Assembly (NCBI GenBank): GCA_052035405.1
Contig: JBPOHQ010000008.1
Span: 32,893 to 96,892 of the forward strand
Origin: Candidatus Nomurabacteria bacterium
GTDB lineage: Bacteria; Patescibacteriota; Minisyncoccia; Phycocordibacterales; UBA9973
Direction: 5' to 3'
DNA length: 64,000 nucleotides
Positions 3,953-43,436 of this stretch are shown here, one piece after another. How positions within the stretch are numbered: the stretch's first letter is position 1; each line of letters begins with the position of its first letter. The notes beneath the pieces were generated by a model, which searched no databases, had not been told where the DNA came from, and saw only the letters and a program-made list of their open reading frames with translations. A program made the position numbers and the translations under genes.

Positions 3953-4036
3953 GAATTATATTCTAGGTTCCATACTTAAAACACAAACAATATAAATTAT
4001 AATATATTTACAGAATATAACCTAGGCACTAATTAC

Positions 4037-4684: not shown

Positions 4685-4687
4685 GTT

Positions 4688-5107
4688 TTAATTTTGTGTT
4701 TCTTTTTGAAGATCTAAAACGTCTAAACTCCAGGCTAAGTCTCGAAGTTTTCCACCGTTTAGTCTCGGGTTGTGAATTTCTTGGGTGCTTGTTTCTGCTT
4801 GTATTGATTGCTGTTTTTTAACTTTTTTAACTTTTCTTTTCCATATAAAAAGTTTATCTTGTAGGGCATATTTAATTCCTGCTTCAAGCATAAAAACAAA
4901 GGGCTTACTGTTTGGTTTATAGAAAGTAAGTGCTAGTGAAAAAGCTGCAACGGCAAGCATGGGAATGATTCCAAAGATTAAACCAAGAAGTCTATATAGT
5001 ACAAAACAAATTCCAGCTCCACCAGCTAAATAAACAAACTCACTAAAGGTGAATGGTCCAAATATTTTATCTTCAATATCTAAAAATTGTGGAACTTTAA
5101 ATTGCAT
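4688..5107 (-). CDS. VirB3/PrgI/ConD-like small two-TM membrane protein
   Basis: 139 aa; two hydrophobic helices (FVYLAGGAGICFVLYRLLGLIFGIIPMLAVAAFSLALTFY); position directly upstream of the virB4-region genes matches Gram-positive T4SS gene order. Confidence 0.5.
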   Translation of the reverse strand: MQFKVPQFLDIEDKIFGPFTFSEFVYLAGGAGICFVLYRLLGLIFGIIPMLAVAAFSLALTFYKPNSKPFVFMLEAGIKYALQDKLFIWKRKVKKVKKQQSIQAETSTQEIHNPRLNGGKLRDLAWSLDVLDLQKETQN

Positions 5108-5170
5108 ATTGTAAACGAATCTTAAACAAGACTGCTATACATATATTGTAATAGTAAATCAATAAAAAGA

Positions 5171-11243: not shown

Positions 11244-11291
11244 TTTTTATTTTTTCTGTCTTATTTTGGTACTGTATATTTTAACACTTCT

Positions 11292-18587: not shown

Positions 18588-20777
18588 TTATTTTATAATT
18601 TTAATTTGGTCTAATTTGTTTTGTTTAGCTGCTTCTTTTAGGGCCCTATTGACGTATTCTTCAATTGTTTCATCGTGTGAACCTACAGTGAAGGCACTTT
18701 TTTCTAAGGGTTCAAGTCCTGTTATATTATGAAGCTCAATAAAATATTTTATTAGACGAGAATATTCTGGGCTCCATGTTTCAGGTTTGTCTTTCATAAG
18801 TCCATAAATTACTTCAGCTTTAGTTTCTTTGATTGCATTCCAGTAATCCCCTTTAGGAAAAATTTGATCTAAATCATTATCTAGTTTTAATTCTACTTTT
18901 TTATCAATATCTGCCATAGACAATTCTGTATGTTCTACTGTTTCATATGAACCATGTCCCCCATATGTTGGATTGATTGCATATGAGTTTACGTTTTGAC
19001 CTTCTAGACTTTGAAAAGAGCCTGTTGCGTTTGCTTGTACAATTTCTTCATACGTTGGTTTAAACATTTGATCTGCTTCACTCGGCACAATGAGCTTTGG
19101 GGTAGAAGCAAAACGGACTTCGTTATTTTTAAGAAGTTCTTTATCTCTTATTTGTTCCTCCTCGTACATTGGATTAATCTTCTGAGTTGCATTAACTACT
19201 GCTTCAGGTTCTATATTTTCTTGTAAAAATGCATCTCGTTCTACGGGAACTCCGTTTATGTCAGCTAATGAGGATTCAGTTGGTGCATTTGAATGAACTG
19301 AGTTGGAAGATCCTCCTCCCTCAAAGGCTTTTATAACTTTCTCGCGATAGTATTCATAATCTTTTTCTATTCCTTGTTTTGTGTTAGGTTCAAAAAGATC
19401 TCCTTCTTTGTGAATTTCACTCGCTATACCATTTTGGTATTCTTGAACAATTGCTTTTCCTTCTTGATCTATTTTCAACACATATGCAGCTCCACCTTCG
19501 GCTTTTACTCGTACATCGCCGTCTTCTCCGATGTATCCGAGCTTCTTTCCTAGTTCTGCAAGGAATTTTACTTTATCAGGTGCTTGATCATAACCCAGAG
19601 CTTCAGCAAGCTTCGGATCAGCTTCGAGCTGTGACTTAAATGCATAGGTAATACCAATATTATTTTTACCATCTACTAGAGCTTCTTTTGGAATTTCAAA
19701 ATTTTCACTGTTAGTGGTAGACACTGCTGAAGTTGCAGGAGTTTCATTTGAAATTTGGGTACCGTCTTGTCCTTCTAAAATAGTTGGATCAGGAGTTGAT
19801 GTCTTAAATTCGTGAACTGGAATTTCTTCTGCTTCAGTATTCTCAAAGAGATGTATGTTTTTTATACCTTGTATTACCGCCTTTTTCGGTAAATTATCAA
19901 CACCAGTAGCTTGTATAGTAGTAGTTAAAAGTCCTGTACCCATACTGAAGGCTCCACCTGCAATCCTTTTCTTCCATTCCAGACCCTTGAGTTGTTTTTC
20001 TTTTTCTTCTACCTTTTTTGCAAGTTCAGGAAGTTTGTTGAGTACAGTATTTATATCAAAGATTTGTCCCGATGAGCCAAGTAACTCATTGGAAAAAACT
20101 TGCTCTTTTTCGGATTCACTTTCTTCAATTTTGTCTTTGAAATACTCATTTATTGTGAATCGCCCCAAAAAATTAGTAGCACTTAGCATTGTTGTAAGTG
20201 GACCTAATACCATTATTGCTACTGTCGCACCTCCTGTTGCCAGAGCAATTTTTAACCATTTTTTTTGTTTGGGTGTTAGTCCGTCATACCAGTCTTTAAG
20301 TTTTTTAGCGAATTCTTGTGCTTCGTTTGAGGCCATAACGGTATTTAGTCCAACCGCCGCGATTATTTTTGTAGAGATTTTAAATCCAGCTCCAAATAGG
20401 GTCGTAGCTGCTCCGAGTACGTCAGCTGTAGCTAGGGTTGCACCAGTGGTCATAGCCATACTTAGGATTGTCCTGGTTTTATTCTGGGCAGGGTCAAGTA
20501 TCCATTTTTCTGTTTTGAGCCACGTTTGCTTAAAAAAATTGCTAGATTCTAGTGTATCCTCTTGGAATTTTTGCCTTTCCTCAGTAAAGATTCTTTGGGC
20601 TATAAGTATTTTTTGTCCATTATTTAGTTGAGTGTTATTTGTAGATTCTTGTAGATTTATTTCGTTTCTTATTAGTGTTGCTACTTGTTCAAGGTCCATC
20701 TCTGGTTTTGCTTCTATGTTTGATTTAGGAGCAAATATATTTAATTTACTAAAAAATGGTTTTTTAGGGATAGACAT
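18588..20777 (-). CDS. Hypothetical large membrane-associated protein
   Basis: Ala/Gly/Thr-rich hydrophobic segments (ILSMAMTTGATLATADVLGAATTLFGAGF, IALATGGATVAIMVLGPLTTML); no enzymatic motif recognised. Confidence 0.45.
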   Translation of the reverse strand: MSIPKKPFFSKLNIFAPKSNIEAKPEMDLEQVATLIRNEINLQESTNNTQLNNGQKILIAQRIFTEERQKFQEDTLESSNFFKQTWLKTEKWILDPAQNKTRTILSMAMTTGATLATADVLGAATTLFGAGFKISTKIIAAVGLNTVMASNEAQEFAKKLKDWYDGLTPKQKKWLKIALATGGATVAIMVLGPLTTMLSATNFLGRFTINEYFKDKIEESESEKEQVFSNELLGSSGQIFDINTVLNKLPELAKKVEEKEKQLKGLEWKKRIAGGAFSMGTGLLTTTIQATGVDNLPKKAVIQGIKNIHLFENTEAEEIPVHEFKTSTPDPTILEGQDGTQISNETPATSAVSTTNSENFEIPKEALVDGKNNIGITYAFKSQLEADPKLAEALGYDQAPDKVKFLAELGKKLGYIGEDGDVRVKAEGGAAYVLKIDQEGKAIVQEYQNGIASEIHKEGDLFEPNTKQGIEKDYEYYREKVIKAFEGGGSSNSVHSNAPTESSLADINGVPVERDAFLQENIEPEAVVNATQKINPMYEEEQIRDKELLKNNEVRFASTPKLIVPSEADQMFKPTYEEIVQANATGSFQSLEGQNVNSYAINPTYGGHGSYETVEHTELSMADIDKKVELKLDNDLDQIFPKGDYWNAIKETKAEVIYGLMKDKPETWSPEYSRLIKYFIELHNITGLEPLEKSAFTVGSHDETIEEYVNRALKEAAKQNKLDQIKIIK

Positions 20778-20879
20778 AATAGATATATTATATAGTTTTA
20801 TGTTTAATAATACTAAATTCTAAGTTTAAGTCTTATATATTATGCATTAAATGTTTGATTCTGTCAATGAAATCTTTTC

Positions 20880-21030
20880 CACACTAGGGTTGACTTGCCC
20901 GTCCGTATGGGCTACCCTTTATATGTACCTGGCAAGGCATCAGCCTTTCCTTCTGGTACACCCCCGTCTAGGAGCACGATTTTACGGATGAAAGGTAGTA
21001 TGACAGTAACCATCGCAAGAATTTTTTTAT
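20880..21030. other. GC-enriched, strongly self-complementary non-coding segment in the divergent intergenic region; candidate cis-regulatory RNA, class unassigned
   Basis: Nested inverted repeats agggt..gccc(gtccgtat)gggc..accct and gtacc..aggc(atca)gcct..ggtac within an otherwise AT-rich 360-bp spacer. Confidence 0.3.
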
Positions 21031-21139
21031 GAGTACAATAGGGTCGCCCTGTATTCTATCCTTGTTTTACAAGGTTTAGGAAGAATTCTTACGACATTTT
21101 GTTTGTTTTATAAAATCTCATTCTAAAATATTCCGAGCT

Positions 21140-22225
21140 ATGCTGATGTTGCCGTTATGCTTAACGGTTTTTGCTAGTGCTTCTCCTGTTGAAGCGAGTC
21201 TTTTATCTTCTCTTCTTGGTGATGATGCTTCAGCCTCTGCCCCAGAGACCATTTCTACTCCAAATTCTATTGCTAATTCTCAAAACATGTCTCTGCTCCA
21301 AGCCAACGCTTCTTCTGCCTCTTTCCTCGATAAGAAAACCAAAACTAAAGACGATGAAGAAGATGTTAAAGAAGATGCAAGTATTACCATTACCGATAAC
21401 GCCCTCTCTCCAGTCACGAATCCTTTAGGTGTATCAGACGGAACAGACTCTAAAGACCCCTCATTTGATCAAATAAGTATATATGTGGTCAGAGGAGGAG
21501 ACTCTATAGCCAAGATAGCTGAGATGTATGATGTCTCGGTAAATACTATTATGTGGGCGAACGACCTTAAGTCCAAGAAGCTAACCGTCGGTGATACCCT
21601 TATCATTCTTCCTGTTTCAGGCTTACAATATAAGGTTCAAAAAGGTGACACCTTAAAAGGTCTTGCAAAAGAGTATAAAGTAGATGTTGCAGACATTATT
21701 GACTATAACAACCTCACTGAAGATTCAAAACTTTCTGTTGGAGACGAGCTGATTATTCCGGGTGCAGAGGTTGAAGTAAAAGCAGCTATTCCAGTAAAAG
21801 TAAAATCTACAAGCAAGACTGGTAGTATACCTAATAATTTTAATAATGCTGATAGCAGTAAGTCAGTAAGTGGTTTCTTGAAGCCAATCCCTTGCCGTCA
21901 GAGTCAAGGCAGACATGACAAGTATGCTGTCGATCTTGCGTGTGGTAAAGCTGGTGTTTCTATCCAAGCATCTATGTCTGGAAAGGTTATCTTTGCTAAA
22001 AAAGGTTGGAACGGTGCTTTCGGAAATCTTACGATTATTGAAAACAATGGAATCCAGACATTTTATGCCCACCAACAAGACATCTTTGTATCCGTCGGTC
22101 AGCAAGTCTCACAAGGTCAAATCATCGGAACTGTTGGAAATACAGGGCGATCTACGGGTCCACACCTACACTTTGAGGTTCGTGGAGCGAAAAATCCAGG
22201 GTTTGATAACTCTTGGGCAAAATAG
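21140..22225 (+). CDS. Secreted LysM-domain (two copies) peptidase M23 family murein hydrolase
   Basis: Signal peptide; two LysM-like blocks (YVVRGGDSIAKIAEMYDVSVNTIMWAN; YKVQKGDTLKGLAKEYKVDVADIIDYN); C-terminal M23 motifs HQQDIFVSVGQQV..GNTGRSTGPHLHFEV. Confidence 0.85.
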   Translation: MLMLPLCLTVFASASPVEASLLSSLLGDDASASAPETISTPNSIANSQNMSLLQANASSASFLDKKTKTKDDEEDVKEDASITITDNALSPVTNPLGVSDGTDSKDPSFDQISIYVVRGGDSIAKIAEMYDVSVNTIMWANDLKSKKLTVGDTLIILPVSGLQYKVQKGDTLKGLAKEYKVDVADIIDYNNLTEDSKLSVGDELIIPGAEVEVKAAIPVKVKSTSKTGSIPNNFNNADSSKSVSGFLKPIPCRQSQGRHDKYAVDLACGKAGVSIQASMSGKVIFAKKGWNGAFGNLTIIENNGIQTFYAHQQDIFVSVGQQVSQGQIIGTVGNTGRSTGPHLHFEVRGAKNPGFDNSWAK

Positions 22226-22268
22226 TACAAGCACAAAAGCACACAAAAACTTTTCTGAGGAATACTTT

Positions 22269-23018
22269 TTATTCGAGTAAAGTTAATGCGATCATTGCTC
22301 CGATACCAAGGAGAAGCATGATGACTTGGAGGATAAAATATCTTCCTCCTTTGGTCCTTTGTAGTTCTGGGATGAGGTCTCCTACGGCTATGTAAATAAA
22401 TCCTCCAGCCGCTATGGGTAAGATTATTTTTATGAAGTTTTCGCTCATGTCTCCTATTATAAAAACAAGGGCAAGTCCGAGCATGGCGGTCAATGCAGAC
22501 AGAAAATTAAGCCAAAGAGCTCGTGTTTTGCTGTAGCCACTATGAATAAGTACCGCAAAATCTCCTATCTCTTGGGGTATTTCGTGAAGTACGACCGCAA
22601 TGGTCGTTGCTATTCCGACAGGAATACTGATTAAAAAACTTGCTCCAATGACTATACCATCGACAAAATTATGAATACCATCTGAGAAGAGAACTAACTT
22701 ACCCACAGGGTGTATGTGGTATTCATCTGTGTCATCTTCGTGATGGTGCCAGTGTAAAAATTTCTCCAATATAAAAAATATAAATATCCCTAGTATGATA
22801 TACAGTCCAATTGTTGTTGGATTTGTCGCCTCTACGAAAGCTTCAGGAATCAGGTGGATAAAGGCATCTCCGAGTAATGCTCCAACTGCCAGACTAATAA
22901 AAAGAGAAATATATTTTTTAATTAAATCAGCTCGAAGAGAGAGTGTAAAAACTCCAACAAGTGAGATGAGACTTATCGCCGTGACACTTAAGAAAGAATA
23001 TAGATATGTTTCGTTCAT
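22269..23018 (-). CDS. zupT: ZIP-family zinc transporter
   Basis: HNFVDGIVIGASF and HEIPQEIGDFAVL motifs; polytopic membrane protein. Confidence 0.85.
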   Translation of the reverse strand: MNETYLYSFLSVTAISLISLVGVFTLSLRADLIKKYISLFISLAVGALLGDAFIHLIPEAFVEATNPTTIGLYIILGIFIFFILEKFLHWHHHEDDTDEYHIHPVGKLVLFSDGIHNFVDGIVIGASFLISIPVGIATTIAVVLHEIPQEIGDFAVLIHSGYSKTRALWLNFLSALTAMLGLALVFIIGDMSENFIKIILPIAAGGFIYIAVGDLIPELQRTKGGRYFILQVIMLLLGIGAMIALTLLE

Positions 23019-23099
23019 GTGATAAAGATACTATATCCTTAATGCAGTTTATTTGCAAGTAAAAGTTTGTTCAACTTTGATTATTTATGTGGATAAACA

Positions 23100-23660
23100 A
23101 AAGTGACAAGTGTTTTAGTCTCTGGTAGGATGTGCTTATAGTATTGGTTTTTTGATAATTAAAACTTGGCTAGGGCAAAAGAAATAGTGTTTAATATAGT
23201 TATTGAGTACTATTTCTTTTGTCTTGCCATGACAAAGAAAGTATCCAGATGGGTTGTGTCCCATTTTCTGTTTCCGCCTGGAGACAAAAATTAACCCAAT
23301 GACAGGGTTAGTCTGGTGCTTTCTTTTAAGAAAGATATTTGTTTTGGGGTTCCCCCAGGTAAGCGTGTGACGCCCTATCGTCACACAAACTGCCTGGGGT
23401 TTCCAGAACTAAAAAGAATGTTAGATAAGTAAGCACTCAGGGGGAGCCTGGTACAAAGGTTCTGGGTTCCCTTTTTGCTTCATCTGACAAGAGGTAAGAT
23501 TAGCGGTTCTTCCAGCTCTGCTGAAAAGTGGTGGCTGGATTTGTTGAAAAATCCTCTCCATTTTGGAGAGTAAAGATACGAGACAGAAGAAAAGATCCAA
23601 ATAAAATGTGTTGTGCGACTTGGTAGCAATTATCAAGTCGCATTTTTATTTATTTAATTA
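23100..23660 (+). ncRNA. Candidate structured non-coding RNA of unknown class, ending at an intrinsic terminator
   Basis: About 550 nt with no credible ORF; multiple nested helices (ccccagg...cctgggg, gtgtgacg..cgtcacac, ctttctt..aagaaag); terminator gcgactt-N13-aagtcgc followed by a T-run at 23615-23652. Confidence 0.25.
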
Positions 23661-23681
23661 ATTGAATTGTGGATAACTATT

Positions 23682-23708
23682 TTGCATACTTTTTTAAAGT
23701 GGTATAAT
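23682..23708 (+). promoter_or_regulatory. Sigma70-like promoter (TTGCAT-N15-TGgTATAAT, extended -10) driving the multi-hairpin RNA
   Basis: ttgcat at 23682-23687; tggtataat at 23700-23708. Confidence 0.5.
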
Positions 23709-23714
23709 TAATAC

Positions 23715-24090
23715 AGAGATAAAAAAGTTGTTCGACAAACAAGAAGAGAGAGATGTAGGAAATAGTATTTAATTCTTTGAATACTGCTTCCTATATCTAC
23801 CCCTTCTATGATATAGAAAAAAATGCATCTAACGATGCAAACTATCGCCACCACGTGGCAACCAAAAAACTGTTACAATTGTAACAATTTAATTTAATCG
23901 CTAATTATATTAGCAAACCGTTTCCCGCTCTTTCGAGCAAAAAAATTGTTGATTATTATCAACACCTGTTCTTTCTAAAAATAGCTAACATCTGTTAGCA
24001 AAACTCATATAGTCACTTCGGTGACAACATCTATCGCATATTTTATATGCACTACAACCCAGCAAAAAATCGCTGGGTTTTTTGTTTGTA
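23715..24090 (+). ncRNA. Candidate novel non-coding RNA of about 375 nt made of about 12 different short hairpins (12-26 nt palindromes) at roughly 27-nt spacing, bounded by a promoter and a terminator
   Basis: No ORF; palindromes at 23764, 23791, 23824, 23847, 23871, 23900, 23927, 23948, 23984, 24012, 24036 and 24058, including a perfect 16-mer tgttacaattgtaaca and a UUCG-loop hairpin gtcacttcggtgac. Confidence 0.4.
24058..24086 (+). terminator. Rho-independent terminator (cccagc-N8-gctggg followed by TTTTTT)
   Basis: Hairpin plus T-run read directly. Confidence 0.75.
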
Positions 24091-24100
24091 TTTTTAAATT

Positions 24101-24129
24101 TTGCTAAAAAACCAATAACAAGCTATAAT
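24101..24129 (+). promoter_or_regulatory. Consensus sigma70-like promoter TTGCTA-N17-TATAAT upstream of tRNA-Pro
   Basis: ttgcta at 24101-24106; tataat at 24124-24129. Confidence 0.55.
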
Positions 24130-24154
24130 CATAGAGTTTTCAGTAAGAAGTATT

Positions 24155-24225
24155 CGGGCTGTAGTATACCGGTAGTACAAGCGCTTTGGGAGCGTTTAGA
24201 CTGGGTTCGATTCCCAGCAGCCCGA
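24155..24225 (+). tRNA. tRNA-Pro (anticodon UGG); CCA not encoded
   Basis: Cloverleaf by hand: acceptor cgggctg/cagcccg, anticodon loop tttggga, T-arm ctggg-ttcgatt-cccag. Confidence 0.85.
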
Positions 24226-24269
24226 CAAAGATTGAATTATTTAATCTTATTTGATAATATAAAAATATT

Positions 24270-24340
24270 GCGGGATTAGTTTAATGGTAAAATAACAGTT
24301 TTCCAAACTGTGGTTGGGAGTTCGATTCCCCCATCCCGCA
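24270..24340 (+). tRNA. tRNA-Gly (anticodon UCC); CCA not encoded
   Basis: Acceptor gcgggat/atcccgc, anticodon stem acagt/actgt with loop tttccaa, T-loop ttcgatt. Confidence 0.8.
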
Positions 24341-24364
24341 CACCAATAGGCATGTTTTAGACAA

Positions 24365-25273
24365 CTACTTGCTGTTTAATTCATTAACTCTTTTATTGTA
24401 AATATTTATAAAAGCATCAAGTGTTTCCGTTTTAAATGCTAATATTTTTAGCATTACTGGGTCACCTTGTTTTATTTTATCAGCCAAGAGAAGAGATTCT
24501 CTTTGATCTTGAAGCGAAGTTATAAAAGAATAAAATATACTCAATTCTGTTTTTGTTATTGTATTTTCTTCGGCAGGATTATTTTCAGCTAGTTTTTTAT
24601 ATTGTTTATCTGAAAGGTCAAAGTAAAACACAGGCATGTTTTTTAAGGGTGTTAAAATCATTTCTTTATTCTTTATCTTGATTCCATATTTTAAGTCTGC
24701 ACCTCCACTCTCAACAATGGCAAGAGTTTTATCAGCTTTTTTAATTGTAAGAGGCAACGCTCCTTCTGATAGTTCTCTATTGTCTTCAAGTAGACTATCA
24801 AGAGCACAAATTGTTTTACCTGTTTTTTTATTTACAATAATAAAGTCTGTGCCAGCCTCGTAGTCATCATAGCTTGCAGTACGCATAACCAGAAAGTCAT
24901 CGCCCAGCACTTTATTTAAAAGTATAGTTACCATAATTTCTGTTTGAGTACCATTCCTCCTCATCTTATCTTCTCGCCATCTGTTTAAGCAACGATCTTG
25001 TGAAGTAGGATCTTCCGAGTGACATTTTGCAAAACTTAATTCCCTTTTTCTTATAGTTGCTTTATCTTTCTCAATTTCTTCTTTTGAATAAATTCCACCA
25101 TTATCTAGCATAAAGGCATCCATTGAAACGGACCCATCTGTTTTTATTAAATTTTGCTTTCCGTACTCTTCCTCTATTCTTTTATTATTTTCGTTAGAAA
25201 TAAACGAAAGCCTTTTTCGTAGCTTTACACTTAGGTGCTCTAAGGCACTTTGTTCAGGTTTAAATTCTCCCAT
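24365..25273 (-). CDS. Hypothetical protein (302 aa)
   Basis: ORF track only; no motif recognised. Confidence 0.45.
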   Translation of the reverse strand: MGEFKPEQSALEHLSVKLRKRLSFISNENNKRIEEEYGKQNLIKTDGSVSMDAFMLDNGGIYSKEEIEKDKATIRKRELSFAKCHSEDPTSQDRCLNRWREDKMRRNGTQTEIMVTILLNKVLGDDFLVMRTASYDDYEAGTDFIIVNKKTGKTICALDSLLEDNRELSEGALPLTIKKADKTLAIVESGGADLKYGIKIKNKEMILTPLKNMPVFYFDLSDKQYKKLAENNPAEENTITKTELSIFYSFITSLQDQRESLLLADKIKQGDPVMLKILAFKTETLDAFINIYNKRVNELNSK

Positions 25274-25292
25274 TTATGTATTATACCTTATA

Positions 25293-25766
25293 TCATAAAA
25301 CAATATCAGAAATTACATTTATTTTTGCTTTTTTATGAGCTAGATCTAGATAAACCACCAGTAGATCCACTTGCCACCCCGTATCTTCTGAGATTCTATT
25401 GGACATAAGGTATGTCTGGATTGTCCGTGATAGACGCTTCAGTTTCCAAGGGTGCATGTTATCTTCAGGCCGATAATCATCCTTCTCGAACGTTTCATGT
25501 GGAACATTCTTTCCTTCTGTTTCATGAGAAACATTAGTTTTTGATGTTTCACGTGGCACAAATGAAGGTAATGTTACGCGTGAAACGCTTTTTACCTCAA
25601 TAAAATAGAGTTTTCCTTGTTTTTCAGCTATTATATCTATTTCACCCCATTTTTTAGTGTAGTTACGATCAATTACTGAGTAACCGTGTTTCACAAGAAA
25701 ATTAACGGCGATATTCTCGCCAATTTCTCCTGTTTTCTGGGTTTTTGAAGTAAAAACCTTTGGCAT
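25293..25766 (-). CDS. yraN: YraN/UPF0102-family endonuclease-like protein carrying an in-frame repeat insertion
   Basis: GEIGENIAVNFLVKHGYSVIDRNY..GEIDIIAEKQGKLYFIEVKS and a C-terminal GWQVDLLVV block fit UPF0102; an inserted segment VTLPSFVPRETSKTNVSHETEGKNVPHETFEKDDY is encoded by the palindrome array. Confidence 0.65.
   Translation of the reverse strand: MPKVFTSKTQKTGEIGENIAVNFLVKHGYSVIDRNYTKKWGEIDIIAEKQGKLYFIEVKSVSRVTLPSFVPRETSKTNVSHETEGKNVPHETFEKDDYRPEDNMHPWKLKRLSRTIQTYLMSNRISEDTGWQVDLLVVYLDLAHKKAKINVISDIVL
25491..25585. repeat. Array of four 14-bp palindromic elements at exact 27-bp spacing inside yraN (gtttcatgtggaac, gtttcatgagaaac, gtttcacgtggcac, gttacgcgtgaaac)
   Basis: Copies start at 25491, 25518, 25545 and 25572; the 27-bp period keeps the reading frame (9 codons). 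Confidence 0.8.
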
Positions 25767-25842
25767 GTATTAATTATACAAACAAAACGATAAAAATGTT
25801 ATATGTGTAACAAATCACAACTACGTTTTATAAATAATTAGT

Positions 25843-25856
25843 GTTTCATGTGGAAC
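25843..25856. repeat. Solo intergenic copy of the 14-bp palindromic element (gtttcatgtggaac, identical to the 25491 copy)
   Basis: Exact 14/14 match to the copy at 25491. Confidence 0.6.
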
Positions 25857-26039
25857 AAGAAGTTGGAAATGACAATTAGAGCCAATTCTATATTTTATAA
25901 GGGTTTTTTAGGTTACTTTGGTCTAAAAGACAAGATTTTTATGTCCGTTATGCACAATACCAACATAGTTATCCACAGTCTGTTAGTAAGTCCTTATTTT
26001 TTAATAACCACAAATATCAGTCATCAGAGACAAAATTTG

Positions 26040-26111
26040 TGCACCCGGAGGGATTCGAACCCCCAACGACGGTTCCGAAGACCGGCGTGATATCCATTTC
26101 ACTACGGGTGC
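26040..26111 (-). tRNA. tRNA-Arg (anticodon UCG, tentative); CCA not encoded
   Basis: Minus-strand cloverleaf: acceptor gcacccg/cgggtgc, D-arm gtga-aatggata-tcac, anticodon loop cttcgga with one C:U mismatch at the base of the anticodon stem, T-arm ggggg-ttcgaat-ccctc. Confidence 0.65.
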
Positions 26112-26132
26112 ATGGAATTAATCAACTTACAA

Positions 26133-26161
26133 AGTATAGCTTATTATGGTTTTTTAATCAA
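26133..26161 (-). promoter_or_regulatory. Sigma70-like promoter (TTGATT-N17-TATACT on the minus strand) upstream of tRNA-Arg
   Basis: Reverse complement of 26133-26161 reads ttgatt-aaaaaaccataataagc-tatact. Confidence 0.4.
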
Positions 26162-26224
26162 AAATATTTAGTGATGAAAGCTGAAACGCTATAATATTCA
26201 TATTTAATATGCTAAAAAAGAAAA

Positions 26225-26253
26225 TTGCAAATCGATAAGCAAAGTAATATAAT
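26225..26253 (+). promoter_or_regulatory. Consensus sigma70-like promoter TTGCAA-N17-TATAAT upstream of tRNA-Gly(GCC) and cca
   Basis: ttgcaa at 26225-26230; tataat at 26248-26253. Confidence 0.55.
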
Positions 26254-26289
26254 GATTTAGTTCTTTTATTTTTTATTATACATAACTAA

Positions 26290-26360
26290 GCGGTTATGGT
26301 TTAGTGGTAGAACACGTCCTTGCCAAGGATGAGACGGGAGTTCGATTCTCCCTAGCCGCA
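26290..26360 (+). tRNA. tRNA-Gly (anticodon GCC); CCA not encoded
   Basis: gcggtta...cacgtccttgccaaggatg... close to the canonical tRNA-Gly(GCC) anticodon arm; T-loop ttcgatt. Confidence 0.85.
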
Positions 26361-26371
26361 CAAATTCCAAG

Positions 26372-27964
26372 GTGGAACAAAATACTAAAAATTTAAAAAC
26401 AAAGATACCTAAAGAGGTTTCACATGTAACAAAAAACCTAGAAGAAGCTGGTTTTGATGTTTTTCTTGTTGGAGGGTGCGTAAGAGATATTTTAATGAAT
26501 AAAGAGCCTAAAGATTGGGATCTGACTACCAACGCTACTCCAGAACAGATTATTCCATTGTTCGACAAGACTGTGTACGAGAATAACTTCGGAACGGTAG
26601 CTGTTTGCGTGCCACGTGAAACAAAAAATACCTTTGTTCCGCATGAAACAGGAGTTTTTGATGTTTCACGTGGCACAAATGGTTCAACTAATAAAAATGT
26701 TACACATGTAACAGAAGAAAGTGTTCCACATGAAACGCTAGAATATGAGATAATTGAGGTTACTCCATATAGAACCGAGACAAAATACAGTGATTTTAGA
26801 CATCCCGATGAAGTAAAATTCAGCGATAAACTAGAAGATGATCTAAAAAGACGTGATTTTACAGTAAATGCTATGGTTATGGACTCTCAGGGTCATGTGC
26901 AGGATCTGTATAATGGTTTAACGGACATAAAGGACAAAATTTTAAGGACAGTAGGAGAGCCAGACGAGAGATTTAACGAAGATGCACTTAGAATGTTAAG
27001 AGCTGTTCGTTTTGCTTGCCAGCTTGGATTTTCTATTTCACATGAAACATCTGAAAGCATGTTTCGAAATGCCGATTTAATAAAAAAGATATCCACAGAG
27101 AGGATTCGTGATGAATTTTCAAAGATAATCATGTCACCGACTCCGGCCGCTGGAGTGGTTATGTTACAAAAATTTGGATTATTAAAACATGTTATTCCTG
27201 AGTTAGAGGAGGGTATAGGATGTGTTCAAGGTGGTGCACATATATACGATGTGTGGGAACATTTGTTAATGGCTCTCCAGCACGCTGCAGATAAAAATTG
27301 GCCATTTGAAATTCGTTTTGCCGCACTTATGCATGACATAGGTAAACCGAGAACTCGAAGACCTGGAGAAAAGAAAGCCTATACTTTCTACGGACATGAA
27401 GTCGTGGGTGCACGAATGGCGAAGAAAATAATGGAGAGATTAAAATATTCTAGAAAAGAAACAGAACTAGTGGAGATTTTTGTCCGAACTCACATGTTTT
27501 TCTCTGATACAGAGAAAATAACTCTCTCTGCTGTACGGAGAATTATTGCGAAAGTTGGAAAAGAAAATATTTGGTTACTTATGAATATTCGTGAGTGTGA
27601 CCGAGTCGGCATGAAAAAAACAGAAGCACCGTATAGATTACGTAAATACTTTGCCATGATAGAAGAAGCTCTTCGTGATCCTATTTCTGTGAAACAGCTT
27701 AAAATTGACGGAAGTTACATGATTAACATGTTACACATGAAACCTGGACCCCGCATGGGCTGGATGTTAAACGCTTTACTTGAAGAAGTTCTAGAAGATC
27801 CGACAAAGAATGAAATTGAGTATTTAAAAAATAAAATTCTAGAATTAGAAAAACTTGAGGATAAAGATTTACGAGAACTTGGCGAGAAAGGGAAAGAAGC
27901 AAAAGAAGAATTAGAAGAAGAAGAAATAGAAAAATTACATGCTAAGCATGGGGTAAAAAAATAA
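26372..27964 (+). CDS. cca: CCA-adding tRNA nucleotidyltransferase (polymerase-beta head plus HD domain) with in-frame palindromic-repeat insertions; GTG start 12 nt after tRNA-Gly
   Basis: FLVGGCVRDILMNKEPKDWDLTT, RRDFTVNAM, HD motif LMHDIGKP; an atypical inserted segment VCVPRETKNTFVPHETGVFDVSRGTNGSTNKNVTHVTEESVPHETLEYE. Confidence 0.85.
   Translation: MEQNTKNLKTKIPKEVSHVTKNLEEAGFDVFLVGGCVRDILMNKEPKDWDLTTNATPEQIIPLFDKTVYENNFGTVAVCVPRETKNTFVPHETGVFDVSRGTNGSTNKNVTHVTEESVPHETLEYEIIEVTPYRTETKYSDFRHPDEVKFSDKLEDDLKRRDFTVNAMVMDSQGHVQDLYNGLTDIKDKILRTVGEPDERFNEDALRMLRAVRFACQLGFSISHETSESMFRNADLIKKISTERIRDEFSKIIMSPTPAAGVVMLQKFGLLKHVIPELEEGIGCVQGGAHIYDVWEHLLMALQHAADKNWPFEIRFAALMHDIGKPRTRRPGEKKAYTFYGHEVVGARMAKKIMERLKYSRKETELVEIFVRTHMFFSDTEKITLSAVRRIIAKVGKENIWLLMNIRECDRVGMKKTEAPYRLRKYFAMIEEALRDPISVKQLKIDGSYMINMLHMKPGPRMGWMLNALLEEVLEDPTKNEIEYLKNKILELEKLEDKDLRELGEKGKEAKEELEEEEIEKLHAKHGVKK
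26417..26430. repeat. Single copy of the 14-bp palindromic element (gtttcacatgtaac) near the 5' end of cca
   Basis: Encodes VSHVT in the cca frame. Confidence 0.55.
26609..26736. repeat. Array of five 14-bp palindromic elements inside cca (starts 26609, 26636, 26663, 26699, 26723; spacings 27, 27, 36, 24, all multiples of 3)
   Basis: gtgccacgtgaaac, gttccgcatgaaac, gtttcacgtggcac, gttacacatgtaac, gttccacatgaaac. Confidence 0.8.
27714..27743. repeat. Degenerate copy plus intact copy of the palindromic element (gttacatgattaac ... gttacacatgaaac) near the 3' end of cca
   Basis: Read directly; encodes MINMLHMKPG. Confidence 0.5.
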
Positions 27965-37484: not shown

Positions 37485-37504
37485 AAGTGTGTTAGTATCA
37501 AAAT

Positions 37505-38140
37505 ATGAAAAAGAAAATAATTATTTTTGATATGGATGGAGTGCTTTTTGATACAAATGAGATTGCTTCTCGGCACATGTCACTTCGATTCCCTGGTATC
37601 TCTGAAGAAATAAAATTAGAATTACTAACTGGAAATTTTCACGAAGAGTTAGAAAAACTTTCTTTAGAGCGAGTTCAAGAATCAGAAGAAGAAAAACTTG
37701 AAAGACAGGTTAGATATGTACATGAAAAATCACAAGCCCCGATGTATGATGGCATGAAAGAGTTGCTCAAAAAATTGCACGCAGAGGGATATTTTATTTG
37801 TCTGAATACTTCTGCGTGGGAGAGGAACACCTTGCCTCTTTTAGATAGGGTGGGGATAATTAGTTTATTTGATTTCCTTGGGACTGCTGAAGTTTCAAAA
37901 AGTAAATTAGAAAAATTTAAAATTATAAAGGACAAATATGAGGCAGACTTAAAGGACATGCTTTTTATAACGGACACCTCAGGAGACATCAGAGAGGCAA
38001 ACAGTGCTGGTGTTTCTACTGTCGCTGTAACATGGGGTGCACACGATGAAAGTTATTTTACTCGTGAACCATACGAACACCTACTTAAAATAATCCACTC
38101 TGTTCCCGAACTTGAGAGTTTCATAGAGAACTACCAGTAG
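37505..38140 (+). CDS. HAD-superfamily hydrolase (subfamily IA)
   Basis: IIFDMDGVLFDT motif I; LNTS; FITDTSGDIREANSAGV. Confidence 0.8.
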   Translation: MKKKIIIFDMDGVLFDTNEIASRHMSLRFPGISEEIKLELLTGNFHEELEKLSLERVQESEEEKLERQVRYVHEKSQAPMYDGMKELLKKLHAEGYFICLNTSAWERNTLPLLDRVGIISLFDFLGTAEVSKSKLEKFKIIKDKYEADLKDMLFITDTSGDIREANSAGVSTVAVTWGAHDESYFTREPYEHLLKIIHSVPELESFIENYQ

Positions 38141-39309: not shown

Positions 39310-39449
39310 TTTTTTATTTTTAAGTAACGAGTCGGTTTTATCTGCCGAAACAGTTCCCAGAGAGTTCTAGTATTTTCTAAGTTTTTTATATCATATTAAT
39401 ATAAAAAGTAAAGTTTTATGAATATCTTTGTATCTGTTATACTCAAAAA

Positions 39450-40115
39450 ATGATTTTCCCAAAATTAAAAAATAAAGTTTTTGGTTATGTGGATCTAAAT
39501 CTGGAAGCAGAAGAGTGGATAGAGAAAAAAGGTTTGATTGTTTCAGAGTTAGAAAATCCATTGATTGATCCAAAAGTTTGTGAAGAATTTGTGAATGATG
39601 TACATAAAAAATATTCTTTGGATTTTTCTTATGGAGGGTGGATGGAAGATAGGTCTTTTTTATGGAAAGCTGGGTATTTAGAAAAAGAAAAAATGTTTAT
39701 TCATCTAGGTGTAGATATCAATGTGCCTGTAGGGACTGAAGTCGCCACAGATTTTAAAGCAGAAGTATTAAAAATAGACAATGACTATCCTCTCGATGGT
39801 GGTTGGGGCACACATGTTTTTTTAAAGAATTTAGAAAAAGACGTTTGTGTGTTGTACGCACACTTAGATCAAGAAGTTTTTTGTAAGGAAGGGGATGTTT
39901 TAGAAAAAGATACTATTTTTGCAAAAGTTGGAGAAGCCCCTTTTAATGGTAATTGGTTTCCTCATGTACACGTACAAACTATTAGTATAGAGTATTATGA
40001 ACAACTGAAACAAACAAATGATTGGGAACGTTTTGATGGTTATGGACTGAAAAACGATAGTAGAGAAAATGCTCGTAAGCATAGAGATCCTCTAGGGTTT
40101 ATTTCTCTCACTTAG
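39450..40115 (+). CDS. Peptidase M23 family protein
   Basis: HLGVDINVPVGTEVATDFKAEVL, YAHLD, HVHVQ. Confidence 0.75.
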   Translation: MIFPKLKNKVFGYVDLNLEAEEWIEKKGLIVSELENPLIDPKVCEEFVNDVHKKYSLDFSYGGWMEDRSFLWKAGYLEKEKMFIHLGVDINVPVGTEVATDFKAEVLKIDNDYPLDGGWGTHVFLKNLEKDVCVLYAHLDQEVFCKEGDVLEKDTIFAKVGEAPFNGNWFPHVHVQTISIEYYEQLKQTNDWERFDGYGLKNDSRENARKHRDPLGFISLT

Positions 40116-40135
40116 TTTATCCACAGGTGTTTTTG

Positions 40136-40164
40136 TTGACAGTGAACGAGCGTTCACCTATACT
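40136..40164 (+). promoter_or_regulatory. Promoter TTGACA-N17-TATACT whose spacer is a canonical Gram-positive-type SOS/LexA box GAAC-N4-GTTC (gtgaacgagcgttcac, 40142-40157)
   Basis: ttgaca at 40136-40141; palindrome 40142-40157; tatact at 40159-40164. Confidence 0.65.
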
Positions 40165-40251
40165 ATATGCATAGGTCGCTTTATAAAATTTAATAGACCG
40201 AGCCGTGTTTCTTTCTTTGACATACGGCTTGTGTCTGAATAAAAGTAACAC

Positions 40252-40455
40252 ATGTCACAAACACAATATTTAAGTTTCTTAGAAAGAGAGATAAACAAAC
40301 TAAATAAGATTATTGACTATAAAATAATTCATCAAGAAAATTATTCAAAAGAGGCGAGAGACCACAAACTTCTTTTAAAGAAAGTTCGCTATCACTCACG
40401 TTCCCGTTTGAACTTTTTTCAGAGGTTTTTTCAAGTTCAAAAGTTTCAATTTTAA
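40252..40455 (+). CDS. Small hypothetical ORF between the SOS-box promoter and lexA
   Basis: ORF track; basic protein; may be a leader peptide or spurious. Confidence 0.3.
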   Translation: MSQTQYLSFLEREINKLNKIIDYKIIHQENYSKEARDHKLLLKKVRYHSRSRLNFFQRFFQVQKFQF

Positions 40456-40458
40456 TAT

Positions 40459-41025
40459 ATGGAGAATTCGTATCAAGACAAAATTCAAAATTTTTATTCT
40501 AAGAATAAACGAATGCCGACATACTCGGAGATGATGAAGCTTTTCGGATTGAAGTCTAAAAATGCAATTTACAAAATTGTGAATAAATTAGAAGAAGCAG
40601 GAATGGTTGCAAAGGATCATCTAGGAAGACTCATTCCTACACAATCCTTTGGAGAGATTCCTATGCTTGGACTTGTGAAAGCAGGTTTCCCGTCTGATGC
40701 CGAAGAGCAAGTTCTCGACACTATGAGCCTTGATGACCTACTTATAGGGAAAAAAGAACTAACTTATATGCTTGAGGTAGATGGAGACTCGATGATCGAA
40801 GCACATATACAAAAAGGAGACACAGTGCTTGTCGAGAAAACTAATTCTGCAAAAGACGGAGAAATAGTCATCGCTGAAGTAGACGGAGAGTTTACTATGA
40901 AATATTTCAAAACTAAAAATGGCAAAGTCTGGCTCGAACCCGCTAATAAGAATTTTAAAAACATATACCCTACTCAGAGCCTAAACGTAATAGCAAAAGT
41001 AAAAGCGGTGATTAGGAAATATTAA
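40459..41025 (+). CDS. lexA: LexA-like repressor (N-terminal HTH plus S24 peptidase domain)
   Basis: MLEVDGDSMIEAHIQKGDTVLVEK...GEIVIAEVDGEFTMKYF with the Ser-Lys dyad region. Confidence 0.8.
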   Translation: MENSYQDKIQNFYSKNKRMPTYSEMMKLFGLKSKNAIYKIVNKLEEAGMVAKDHLGRLIPTQSFGEIPMLGLVKAGFPSDAEEQVLDTMSLDDLLIGKKELTYMLEVDGDSMIEAHIQKGDTVLVEKTNSAKDGEIVIAEVDGEFTMKYFKTKNGKVWLEPANKNFKNIYPTQSLNVIAKVKAVIRKY

Positions 41026-41049
41026 CCAAAAAATTGTTATAATGAGTAT

Positions 41050-42102
41050 ATGTCTGCAGTTACTGGGTTAAAATCTAATTTAATAAATTTGTCGAACAAG
41101 CGTCCTCTTTCAGGCACTAAAGAATCTCTGAAATTTATTGATTTTTGTGCTGGGATTGGTGCTGGACGTATCGGCTTGGAAAAAAATGGACTAACTTGTG
41201 TTGGATTTTCTGAAATAGACAAACAAGCTGAATTAACTTATAGAAAGCTTTTTGGTGATGAGGAAATAAATTACGGAGATTTGATGAAAATAGACGCAAA
41301 CAAGTTGCCTGATTTTGATATGATGATTGCCGGCTTTCCTTGTCAAAGTTTTTCCGTTATTGGTCAAAGAAAGGGTATGCAAGATGAACGTGGGCAGATT
41401 ATTTATGGCCTTACTAAGATAATGCGTTCAAAAAATCTCAAATACTTTATCTTAGAAAATGTGAAGGGGCTTACTAATCATGAAAAAGGTAATTCACTCA
41501 AGATTATTTTAAACGAATTAGACAGGGTTGGGTATAAAGTTTTCCATAAAGTGTTGAATAGCATTGACTACGGTGTACCGCAAATGCGTGAGAGAATTTA
41601 CCTTGTTGGTATTAGAAAGGATTTAGTGCCTAAAAATTTTGAATTTAATTTTCCAGAACCTCAATCAAAAGTAGACGTAAAACATTACTTAATTGATCCA
41701 AGGGAGTCTGAATTTAAAGAAAATAAAGTTGTTTATGCAACATTTTTAAGATATCTAAAAAATAAGTACAACAATAATCAGTATTCCGTTAAGAGTTTTC
41801 TTAAACAAGAATATGTAATATTGGACACAAGGCAGTCTGATTTAAGGATTTATCATAATAGAGTGCCTACTCTCAGGACAGGTAGACATGGTATTTTATA
41901 TGTAAGAGATGGAAAATTTAGAAAACTATCCGGAGTTGAGTCTTTGTTGTTGCAAGGTTTTCCTAAAGATCTTATTAAGAGAGTAGATGGATATATCAAT
42001 GAAAATTATCTGCTGAAGCAGGCTGGGAATGCTATGACTGTTAACACTATTGAAGCTATTTCTAGAGAGTTGTTTAAGACATTGAAAAAATATGAACAAT
42101 AA
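41050..42102 (+). CDS. DNA (cytosine-5)-methyltransferase
   Basis: Motif I DFCAGIGAG, motif IV GFPCQSFS, ENVKGL, QAGNAM; layout resembles M.MspI/HpaII-type enzymes (specificity not assigned). Confidence 0.9.
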   Translation: MSAVTGLKSNLINLSNKRPLSGTKESLKFIDFCAGIGAGRIGLEKNGLTCVGFSEIDKQAELTYRKLFGDEEINYGDLMKIDANKLPDFDMMIAGFPCQSFSVIGQRKGMQDERGQIIYGLTKIMRSKNLKYFILENVKGLTNHEKGNSLKIILNELDRVGYKVFHKVLNSIDYGVPQMRERIYLVGIRKDLVPKNFEFNFPEPQSKVDVKHYLIDPRESEFKENKVVYATFLRYLKNKYNNNQYSVKSFLKQEYVILDTRQSDLRIYHNRVPTLRTGRHGILYVRDGKFRKLSGVESLLLQGFPKDLIKRVDGYINENYLLKQAGNAMTVNTIEAISRELFKTLKKYEQ

Positions 42103-42871
42103 AAAGAAAAACCAGAAAGAAATGGTGGCTCTTGGCTCAAAAACCGCAAAGGGCGGGTTTGCAAACGAGCAGGACGTTATTAATCGATTTAATAATTGGA
42201 AGACCGATATGATTGCTCAAGAATGGTTAGCAGAAATGAATTACAAAATAGACGATATTGAGTTTGTGCAAGCTTCAAAAGTGAAAGGTCAATATAAAGC
42301 CGATATTCAGGTTAGGATAACTATATTAATAAAACAACAATCTCAAGAGGATGTGCAGAATTTACAGGTGAAGCTCGTGAGTAATCCGCAAGGATTTAAT
42401 CAAATAGATAAAAGATGGGTTGATAAATATGTGGAACTTTGGAATATCCCCGCTGACGTATCAAGGATACTTAAGCTTTTTACTGGTGAAATAGCTTCCT
42501 CAAAAAGCGGTTTAAGAGATCCGCGAAGAATGTTTTTAGATGAAATGAGTGTGTCTGACCAAGATAAACTTATAAAATTTATAGAGGGAAACAAGATCTT
42601 GATTATTTCAGATTTATTAAAAGGTAGAGGGGAATTTTCTGCAGATTGGACATTGGTTATTTTAAAAGTTACAGGAGATGATGCTTGGGTTTTAAGATCA
42701 GTAAATCACGTTATGAATGTTTTTGGTTCAGGTGAAGTCCTAATTACTCGTAAGGGTAGTTTGAATATTGGTAATATTACCATGCAAAGAAAAGGGGGAG
42801 ATGGAGGTCGCAAAACAGCTCAAATGCTTCAATTTAAAATAAATCCTGTCTTGTTATTTGATAGTAAATAA
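42092..42871 (+). CDS. Putative type II restriction endonuclease partner of the m5C methyltransferase (MspI-like?)
   Basis: Start overlaps the MTase stop by 11 nt; C-terminal RKGGDGGRKTAQMLQFK loosely resembles the MspI C-terminus; identity tentative. Confidence 0.45.
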   Translation: MNNKKKNQKEMVALGSKTAKGGFANEQDVINRFNNWKTDMIAQEWLAEMNYKIDDIEFVQASKVKGQYKADIQVRITILIKQQSQEDVQNLQVKLVSNPQGFNQIDKRWVDKYVELWNIPADVSRILKLFTGEIASSKSGLRDPRRMFLDEMSVSDQDKLIKFIEGNKILIISDLLKGRGEFSADWTLVILKVTGDDAWVLRSVNHVMNVFGSGEVLITRKGSLNIGNITMQRKGGDGGRKTAQMLQFKINPVLLFDSK

Positions 42872-42880
42872 ATAAATTTC

Positions 42881-42918
42881 AAAAACAAAAACCCCGATAA
42901 ACGGGGTTTTTGTTTTTG
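42881..42918. terminator. Bidirectional intrinsic terminator (ccccg-ataaa-cgggg flanked by A-run and T-run) between the convergent R-M operon and hup
   Basis: Read directly. Confidence 0.8.
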
Positions 42919-42945
42919 TCTCGAGACAAATAGTTTTTCCTAATA

Positions 42946-43218
42946 TTATTCGACTGCGTCTTTTAGAGCTTTTGCAGGTCGGAATTTTGGAACTTTCTTT
43001 GCAGCAACCTTAACTTGCTCTCCAGTCTTTGGATTACGAGCCATTCTTGCAGCACGTCCTTTTACAGAGAAGATTCCGAATCCAGCGATTGATACTTCAC
43101 CTCCTTTTTTTAAAGTTGCGATGATTGCATCAAACAATCCATCTACGATTTCTTCTGCTTGTACTTTTGTTCCTCCTAGTTTTCCTTGTACCCATTCAGC
43201 TAATGCTTGTTTATTCAT
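42946..43218 (-). CDS. hup: HU-family DNA-binding protein
   Basis: MNKQALAE...GFGIFSVKGRAARMARNPKTGEQVKVAAKKVPKFRPAKALK. Confidence 0.9.
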   Translation of the reverse strand: MNKQALAEWVQGKLGGTKVQAEEIVDGLFDAIIATLKKGGEVSIAGFGIFSVKGRAARMARNPKTGEQVKVAAKKVPKFRPAKALKDAVE

Positions 43219-43395
43219 ATGTTTTATATTTTTATTTTTTAAGTTAACCTAATACTTTTAGAAAGTATTAAGGCAAATATTTTTAATATCTCGACCTATG
43301 CTTACTTATACATTATACAATAAGGGTTTTTTAACGGCAATGATTTTATAAGTTGACTTATCTAATATATGTTGTTTAAAAAATGTATTTTTGTC

Positions 43396-43436
43396 ATTTT
43401 TTAAACGAAAAAGACCTTATTGTAAGGGTCTTTTTC
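43396..43436. terminator. Hairpin with flanking A-run and T-run downstream of rny
   Basis: aaaaagacctt-attgt-aagggtcttttt. Confidence 0.45.

Follow-up and report, generated by a model that had tools for sequence, protein, structure and literature searches.

Autoregulated lexA (dinR) promoters of Gram-positive bacteria carry the SOS ("Cheo") box CGAAC-N4-GTTCG, and an SOS network has reportedly been described in Patescibacteria as well. Methyltransferases of the M.SsoII, M.EcoRII and M.MspI type bear a regulatory helix-turn-helix (HTH) at their N terminus, and defence genes tend to accumulate in chromosomal integration hot spots flanked by conserved core genes. Here we have analysed a 64-kb stretch of a Candidatus Nomurabacteria genome (contig JBPOHQ010000008.1; hereafter the window), in which a lexA gene is followed by genes for a C5-cytosine (m5C) methyltransferase (M) and a Type II endonuclease (R). 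Taken as a whole, the locus is with good probability explained by an autoregulated lexA promoter-operator and a GCGC-specific restriction-modification (R-M) pair inserted before the lexA terminator, the pair being expressed from its own promoter plus read-through from lexA.

The lexA promoter and its operator

We have compared the window with the lexA loci of 80 different Nomurabacteria/Paceibacteria (Patescibacteria) species, 857 kb in total (loci L007-L086; L001-L006 are contigs of the window's own species). The promoter region contains the following elements:

40136-40141, + strand: -35 hexamer TTGACA of the lexA-operon promoter, kept in 79 of the 80 related loci
40142-40157, no strand: predicted LexA operator, the 16-bp palindrome GTGAACGAGCGTTCAC with a GAAC-N4-GTTC core, found once in each of the 80 related lexA loci
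40159-40164, + strand: -10 hexamer TATACT, at a conserved position in related lexA promoters
40117-40125, + strand: perfect DnaA-box-consensus 9-mer TTATCCACA, 10 nt upstream of the -35 hexamer

Positions 40136-40164 read TTGACA-GTGAACGAGCGTTCACC-TATACT, with a spacer of 17 nt. The original prediction had placed a palindrome in this spacer, and it is indeed present: GTGAACGAGCGTTCAC, whose arms form a perfect palindrome around GAAC-N4-GTTC, fills 16 of the 17 nt, the remaining one being a C. The promoter matched 11 of the 12 sigma-70 consensus positions and obtained the top score within the 4 kb that were scanned (39400-43400).

The number of GAAC-N4-GTTC copies by itself was not significant. 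The 64 kb hold two of them against 0.75 expected, and two or more were obtained in 16 of 100 shuffles, which would be compatible with a chance inverted repeat, or with the operator of another regulator rather than a LexA site. Such a reading is hardly credible, because the placement is identical in 80 of 80 species although the flanks have otherwise diverged, and because the palindrome is located in lexA's own promoter with a core that is the established Gram-positive LexA motif. Exactly one TGAAC-N4-GTTCA was found per lexA locus in all 80 species, always upstream of lexA and flanked by TTGACA-like and TATACT-like hexamers, whereas no further TGAAC-N4-GTTCA site beyond the lexA promoters was present in the 857 kb of related loci. 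The clade consensus is TTGACA-(0-1 nt)-GTGAACG-NN-CGTTCAC-N-TATACT. It is thus the conserved placement, and not the count, that takes this LexA-type box beyond chance, and a chance palindrome was rejected on these grounds.

Judged by this conservation, the palindrome is a genuine, deeply conserved operator of the Nomurabacteria lexA operon, with LexA as its predicted ligand, in what reads as ordinary autoregulation of LexA through a box of the Gram-positive type. With a LexA dimer on GTGAACGAGCGTTCAC, the promoter spacer would be closed to RNA polymerase, and the repression would be lifted once RecA stimulates LexA to cleave itself. Since such autoregulation is textbook knowledge, what the operator contributes is hardly more than a very clean consensus for a clade that has not been cultured. 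A search for further boxes, proposed earlier as a way to define the regulon, was run in the window and returned only the other GAAC-N4-GTTC copy, which is intragenic (28959) and does not define a regulon. No recA/uvr or other SOS repair gene was recognised among the ten large open reading frames (ORFs) of the window that were scanned.

The identity of the regulator was supported by several features. LexA scored 128.2 bits against TIGR00498, above the curated cut-off of 110.95, and matched PF00717 (S24) with an E-value of 5e-29; its score against the DNA-binding domain PF01726 was 17.4 bits, below the cut-off of 23.7. The cleavage site A75-G76 and the catalytic dyad residues S111 and K148 were invariant in an alignment of 23 orthologues. 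Hundreds of homologues with 70-96% identity were found in Nomurabacteria, Paceibacterota and other Patescibacteria. The gene is orthologous and syntenic in the 80 species, with the conserved order Mg-chelatase-like gene, variable DNA, small ORF, lexA, HU (convergent), RNase Y and ClpP. All this indicates that the window encodes a bona fide LexA, for which RecA-stimulated cleavage is predicted.

The ~90-nt leader of the lexA mRNA shows no sequence conservation when the window is compared with L007. That it might hold a known RNA element was considered and discarded, since the Rfam matches in the window were four tRNAs only. The exact 9-mer TTATCCACA, which in the window falls just short of the interval named in the original prediction, was found 9-11 nt before the -35 hexamer in 70 of 81 lexA loci and is rare elsewhere, with ~14 other copies in the 857 kb. 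A literature search found no precedent for a DnaA box at a lexA promoter.

A probable GCGC restriction-modification pair in the lexA transcription unit

The genes and signals of the transcription unit and of its right flank are as follows:

40252-40455, + strand: conserved 67-aa protein, first gene of the lexA operon, with its stop 3 nt before the lexA ATG
40459-41025, + strand: lexA, 188 aa, winged HTH plus S24 self-cleaving domain (TIGR00498, PF00717)
41035-41043, + strand: extended -10 element TGTTATAAT, predicted M-R promoter, 6 nt before the M ATG
41050-42102, + strand: C5-cytosine methyltransferase M, 350 aa, M.HhaI-like (PF00145, 2.5e-74)
42092-42871, + strand: Type II endonuclease R, 259 aa, R.HinP1I family (G^CGC; PF11463, 7.7e-81)
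42880-42918, no strand: bidirectional intrinsic terminator with a 17-bp perfect stem, common to the lexA unit and HU, aligning with the post-lexA hairpin of L007, L032 and L069
42946-43218, - strand: HU-family nucleoid protein, convergent right flank of the insertion site (PF00216, 2.5e-31)

The string of a small ORF, LexA, an m5C methyltransferase and an overlapping endonuclease was therefore found just as it had been predicted. The match of M to PF00145 was full length, and its translation contains the motifs FCAGIGAG, GFPCQSFS, ENVKGL, QMRERIY and GNAMTV. The closest solved structure was M.HhaI (GCGC), with an E-value of 1e-48 versus 5e-31 for M.HaeIII. R aligned over its full length (residues 11-257) with R.HinP1I (PDB 1YNM, 2.4e-78) and retained the catalytic D...QVK; what had been a putative restriction enzyme is, given this match and the PF11463 assignment, a real endonuclease and not a member of a non-nuclease family. 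The start of R overlaps the end of M by 11 nt.

The tetranucleotide GCGC was observed twice in the window, against 35-42 expected (observed/expected ratio, O/E, 0.06), which makes it the most avoided 4-mer, 18-fold depleted. The remaining sites are at 24181 and 58689, one of them within a tRNA gene (24155-24225). In the 80 related species the GCGC O/E was 1.07, hence the purge is specific to the lineage of the window. The products of m5C deamination, GTGC and GCAC, were enriched (O/E 1.14 and 1.28, versus 0.94 and 1.02 in the relatives), which points to long-standing activity of the methyltransferase in this lineage. Family likeness together with GCGC avoidance points to M-R being a GCGC-specific Type II system. 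The 18-fold loss of GCGC and the gain of its deamination products clearly illustrate how, in nature, an R-M system reshapes the genome of its host. A recent foreign origin of the module was also considered on the basis of composition and rejected, the G+C content (0.32-0.34) showing no difference from that of the flanks.

The gap between the lexA stop and M is 24 nt. No terminator-like site was found on the + strand between the lexA promoter and the hairpin at 42880-42918, in agreement with the original prediction, which had seen no terminator before ~42892. HU is 84-96% identical in the related loci. In the survey of the lexA-HU gap, which covered the 67 species with both flanks on the contig, HU lies 55-204 nt after lexA in 34 species, and the gap holds a bidirectional hairpin. 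In the window, the sequence that follows R (AAAACAAAAACCCCG...CGGGGTTTTTGTTTTTGTCTCGAGA) aligns with the sequence directly after the lexA stop in L007, L032 and L069, which places M-R after the lexA stop and ahead of the ancestral lexA terminator. Of the two possibilities raised earlier for this locus, insertion of the R-M unit into the lexA operon is the one that this alignment bears out, and the GCGC pair is best read as an insert in the distal (3') end of the lexA unit.

The order lexA-M-R was found only on contigs of the window species (L001-L006). A conserved lexA-M-R arrangement was rejected, since homologues of the pair elsewhere occupy unrelated surroundings: the R homologues nearest in sequence (76-85% identity) were never found behind lexA and follow a C (controller) gene, a Dam-class methyltransferase or a tRNA, or stand in other contexts.

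Several loci retain traces at the borders of their inserts. In L001, a sister variant of the window, a 16/20 copy of the lexA 3' end (10534-10553) stands right after R. The insert of L051 is flanked by a 45-nt remnant of the lexA 3' end (7927-7971), that of L054 by a 14-nt exact repeat (7476-7489) and that of L009 by a duplicated terminator (8316-8345). These traces suggest that cassettes enter by recombination at the conserved lexA end, which would also explain their uniform orientation. In the window itself, an AT-rich direct repeat (41076-41099/42865-42888, 18 of 24 positions identical) may mark the ends of the insert.

The comparison of L001 with the window also revealed differences in gene content. 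Two genes that L001 carries between R and the terminator, Exo_endo_phos and a split NTPase_I-T (10576-11859), have no counterpart in the window (42872-42880). L001 has three more genes (2727-5165) between the Mg-chelatase-like and HAD genes, namely AAA_14/DUF4143, Peptidase_S51 and a 136-aa ORF, which are absent from the window (~37485-37505). The R protein ends in ...LFDR in L001 and in ...LFDSK in the window. A short palindrome, TCTCGAGA (often ATCTCGAGAT), follows the lexA/HU terminator (window 42919-42927) and is conserved in many species.

Accessory genes after lexA in related species

Cargo genes were found in the lexA-HU gap of 32 of the 67 species, with 70 of the 75 cargo ORFs on the lexA strand. 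R-M genes were among the cargo in 12 of these 32 species, in all 12 co-oriented with lexA, and comprised at least eight kinds:

NgoPII plus m5C methyltransferase
TdeIII plus N4/N6 methyltransferase
N4/N6 methyltransferase plus HNH or PD-(D/E)XK nuclease
PD-(D/E)XK nuclease plus m5C methyltransferase
two Dam-class methyltransferases plus HNH nuclease
Eco57I-like methyltransferase
type I HsdM plus HsdS
lone m5C methyltransferase

Additional m5C methyltransferases follow lexA in L011 and L022, which are not among the 12 species. In nearly all species with R-M cargo, its first gene starts ~20-46 nt after lexA, usually behind TGnTATAAT-N6-ATG, and such a distance leaves too little room for a terminator between lexA and the cargo. 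The site also hosts non-defence genes, such as those for HAD phosphatases and ABC transporters. Small proteins of two families are encoded 2-20 nt after the lexA stop, with neither a promoter motif nor a reliable Pfam match: one in L014, L037 and L043 (129-136 aa), the other in L040, L054 and L059 (113-162 aa). Both families probably belong to the lexA operon of these species as genuine additional members.

Taken together, these data identify the space after lexA as a clade-wide hot spot for accessory genes. The original prediction had called the arrangement unusual; with post-lexA cargo in 32 of 67 species, and R-M genes in 12 of them, it is common in the clade and that description was overstated. 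We have also considered an integron-like cassette array, with co-oriented cargo behind one promoter, and rejected it: neither an integrase nor attC-like repeats were found, and the repeats that do flank inserts derive from the lexA 3' end or the terminator. The useful result is a structural one: in these bacteria with small genomes, R-M genes have repeatedly landed between lexA and its terminator, where they would join an SOS-controlled transcription unit.

Expression of the methyltransferase-endonuclease pair

Of the 47 gene starts surveyed in the window, two have a Shine-Dalgarno sequence, and 23 have a -10 element, in many cases TGnTATAAT, at a distance of 5-8 nt upstream of the ATG. With Shine-Dalgarno sequences nearly absent and half of the genes having an ATG-proximal -10, leaderless mRNAs are apparently the norm. 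The lexA promoter departs from this pattern in having a full -35 hexamer and a leader of ~90 nt. The internal promoter TATAAT-N6-ATG proposed at 41038 was present: TATAAT occupies 41038-41043 within TGTTATAAT-N6-ATG, as part of an extended -10 element. From this we infer that the M-R mRNA would be leaderless and start from the pair's own promoter.

The closest homologues of the pair (M 76% and R 83% identical) are organised as C-M-R operons (L087, L089 and L094), in which an HTH_3 C gene of 68-71 aa ends 4-8 nt before M; in L087 and L089, the promoter of the C gene contains the inverted repeat ATATCA-N8-TGATAT. Other M-R homologues have no C gene and stand in unrelated contexts. No HTH_3 (XRE-type) controller gene was found in the window between 40100 and 42900. 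The homologous methyltransferases have 332 aa, while the window M carries 18-19 extra N-terminal residues (codons 41050-41106), and the homology starts where the homologues have their start codon. Since the homologues carry a C gene and begin at the 332-aa start, the module seems, at insertion or later, to have lost its controller, and with it the operator of its closest relatives, together with its original start, and to have gained a local promoter and start that added the 18-19-codon extension. R has no expression signals of its own and overlaps M, so its translation is likely coupled to that of M through the 11-nt overlap.

No LexA box was found at the M promoter (41026-41050), neither as GAAC-N4-GTTC nor as a match to the 16-mer with up to three mismatches, and consequently the SOS response could act on M-R only via read-through. 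With the ancestral terminator now located after R, transcripts from the LexA-repressed promoter should run through M-R. Re-initiation 24 nt past the lexA stop is plausible in an organism that does without Shine-Dalgarno sequences. Read-through would thereby add a damage-inducible increment to constitutive expression of the pair; such an increment is likely, if unproven, and the chances that it is quantitatively relevant are about evenly balanced.

One may also suppose that M-R is transcriptionally independent of lexA and uses its own leaderless promoter only, the site being merely permissive and of no regulatory consequence, with lexA transcripts ending or decaying before M, for instance by Rho-dependent termination in the untranslated gap. 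In favour of this, M stands behind a strong extended -10 of a kind found throughout the genome, a similar promoter accompanies the R-M cargo of other species, the site takes non-defence genes as well, and the remnants of the lexA 3' end suggest that co-orientation arises from the recombination mechanism. Yet the 24-nt gap is too short for an intrinsic terminator, the ancestral lexA terminator now follows R, and several other cargo genes lie 2-20 nt after lexA with no promoter, so that read-through is apparently used at this site. Weighing both sides, we consider full independence rather unlikely.

The opposite view builds on the C-protein role that the original prediction had suggested for LexA. 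LexA would be a functional controller replacing the lost one, the LexA-repressed promoter would account for most of the M-R expression, DNA damage would switch restriction and modification, and the arrangement would have been selected for that purpose. The position of lexA agrees with it, as the gene stands where the homologous operons have their C gene, immediately upstream and co-oriented, with no terminator between lexA and M. Moreover, the R-M inserts of the other species were co-oriented with lexA in 12 of 12 cases, and fusions of R-M methyltransferases to a complete LexA-like domain form a large family in this phylum (described below), an independent case of LexA being coupled to R-M. 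Against this, M has its own promoter with no LexA box at or near it, and the closest homologues of the pair have an HTH_3 C gene of their own; the arrangement is confined to one species; and C proteins delay R relative to M via C-boxes, whereas nothing in the window gives such timing. A literature search found no precedent for LexA-regulated R-M systems. The proposed C-protein role finds no support in these data, and we regard a LexA selected as controller of the pair as quite improbable.

We favour the explanation in which an autoregulated lexA unit of the window species has received a GCGC Type II module between the lexA stop and the ancestral bidirectional lexA/HU terminator, with M-R using its own promoter and a contribution from lexA transcripts. 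Some points weigh against it. LexA binding to the box, read-through, the leaderless start and translational coupling are all read from sequence. The 64-kb window contains no other SOS gene with a box against which the regulon could be checked. The direct repeat at 41076-41099/42865-42888 could be due to chance, and the co-orientation of the cargo could come from the insertion mechanism and not from a benefit of co-transcription.

LexA-methyltransferase fusions in related genomes

A second LexA-like gene of L072 (1800-3386, - strand) encodes a protein of 528 aa in which a complete LexA (HTH, Ala-Gly, Ser, Lys) is joined to an m5C methyltransferase. Such fusions were also found in L091 (4001-5578) and in L096-L175. 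In Parcubacteria, LexA-methyltransferase fusions of ~525 aa form at least 120 clusters that are 77-81% identical. At 74 fusion loci, a convergent ORF stands 4-8 nt after the fusion gene and belongs to at least seven unrelated families, among them Bsp6I-like, NgoFVII-like and PD-(D/E)XK endonucleases. In 12 loci a Vsr gene lies upstream of the fusion, and five loci have an HTH_3 gene close by. Because convergent endonuclease partners and Vsr genes adjoin them, the fusions look like Type II R-M methyltransferases carrying a damage-cleavable regulator. A literature search found no description of LexA-methyltransferase fusions.

The promoters of the fusion genes are conserved (TGTGGATAAC...TTTCGG-N6-TTCGG-TTATAAT), and in L096-L175 they are headed by an inverted TTATCCACA 9-mer. 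The occurrence of this 9-mer at both kinds of promoter suggests that DnaA or another factor co-regulates lexA and the fusion genes. The lexA and M genes of the window happen to share a reading frame, with one stop codon and eight codons between them. The window LexA and M are ~30-36% identical to the corresponding halves of the fusions, a level that implies no direct descent between the two.

The fusions lend some plausibility to SOS-controlled restriction. Patescibacteria R-M systems might even be systematically wired to the RecA/LexA damage signal, in replacement of or in addition to C proteins. Two routes could lead there: (a) insertion of R-M cassettes into the lexA transcription unit, always in the lexA orientation and ahead of its terminator, as in the window and at least 12 other species, and (b) the ~525-aa predicted fusions of a complete self-cleaving LexA with a Type II m5C methyltransferase. 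We put this forward as a tentative and rather doubtful generalisation. If it were true, LexA cleavage would shift the balance of modification and restriction, for example in Type II restriction alleviation or as a phage-triggered switch. Should expression of the window pair depend on damage, this would be a new mode of Type II regulation, linking genome defence to the DNA-damage response in uncultivated organisms.

The 67-aa partner of LexA and other features of the window

A homologue of the 67-aa protein is encoded upstream of lexA in 80 of 80 loci, with 39-72% identity. An exhaustive search of the family returned 69 representative clusters, all of ~65 aa. Residues N18, I21, D22 and H38 are invariant, and the C-terminal tail is aromatic/basic. 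No Pfam or NCBIfam family matched the protein. The AlphaFold2 model (pLDDT 84.5; helices 3-26 and 32-60) predicts with confidence a two-helix hairpin, and a fold search with this model returned only non-significant generic coiled hairpins, all with E > 1. Conservation indicates that the ORF is a real gene, encoding a conserved partner of LexA in the clade.

Elsewhere in the window, the region ~20000-26400 contains the minimum of the cumulative GC skew and a shift in gene orientation from mostly - to mostly + strand. The same region holds four tRNA genes and DnaA-box 9-mers at 23088, 23668 and 25969. It may be a replication origin; no dnaA/dnaN was recognised nearby.

Comparison with known systems

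The lexA promoter of the window resembles that of Gram-positive lexA (dinR) in its GAAC-N4-GTTC core, in having the operator overlap the lexA promoter and in controlling an S24 LexA with the Ala-Gly, Ser and Lys residues. It differs from it in that the palindrome of the window clade is longer and nearly invariant (GTGAACG-N2-CGTTCAC), in the single operator located exactly in the -35/-10 spacer, and in the 67-aa gene before lexA and the DnaA-box 9-mer upstream of the -35.

The M-R pair compares best with HinP1I/HhaI (PDB 1YNM and 1MHT families): R has the catalytic D...QxK, M is closest to M.HhaI, the two genes are adjacent and co-oriented, and the host avoids GCGC. Unlike HinP1I/HhaI, the window pair is inside a lexA transcription unit, and its M has 18-19 extra residues and a predicted leaderless promoter. 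As in the C-protein R-M operons (PvuII, AhdI and Esp1396I; L087, L089 and L094), a small DNA-binding repressor gene stands immediately upstream and co-oriented, but the window has neither an HTH_3 C gene nor a C-box, and the LexA operator is ~900 nt upstream, at another promoter.

The LexA-methyltransferase fusions of related genomes are comparable to the M.SsoII/M.EcoRII/M.MspI type, since they carry a DNA-binding domain on an R-M methyltransferase. They depart from the M.SsoII type in that the regulatory module would be a complete self-cleaving LexA, whereas in the window LexA and M are separate proteins. Finally, the lexA-HU site shares with known integration hot spots a variable cargo, often R-M, between two highly conserved genes. 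It is set apart from them by cargo that is placed upstream of the terminator of the flanking gene and is almost always co-oriented with it, with no integrase or tRNA involved.

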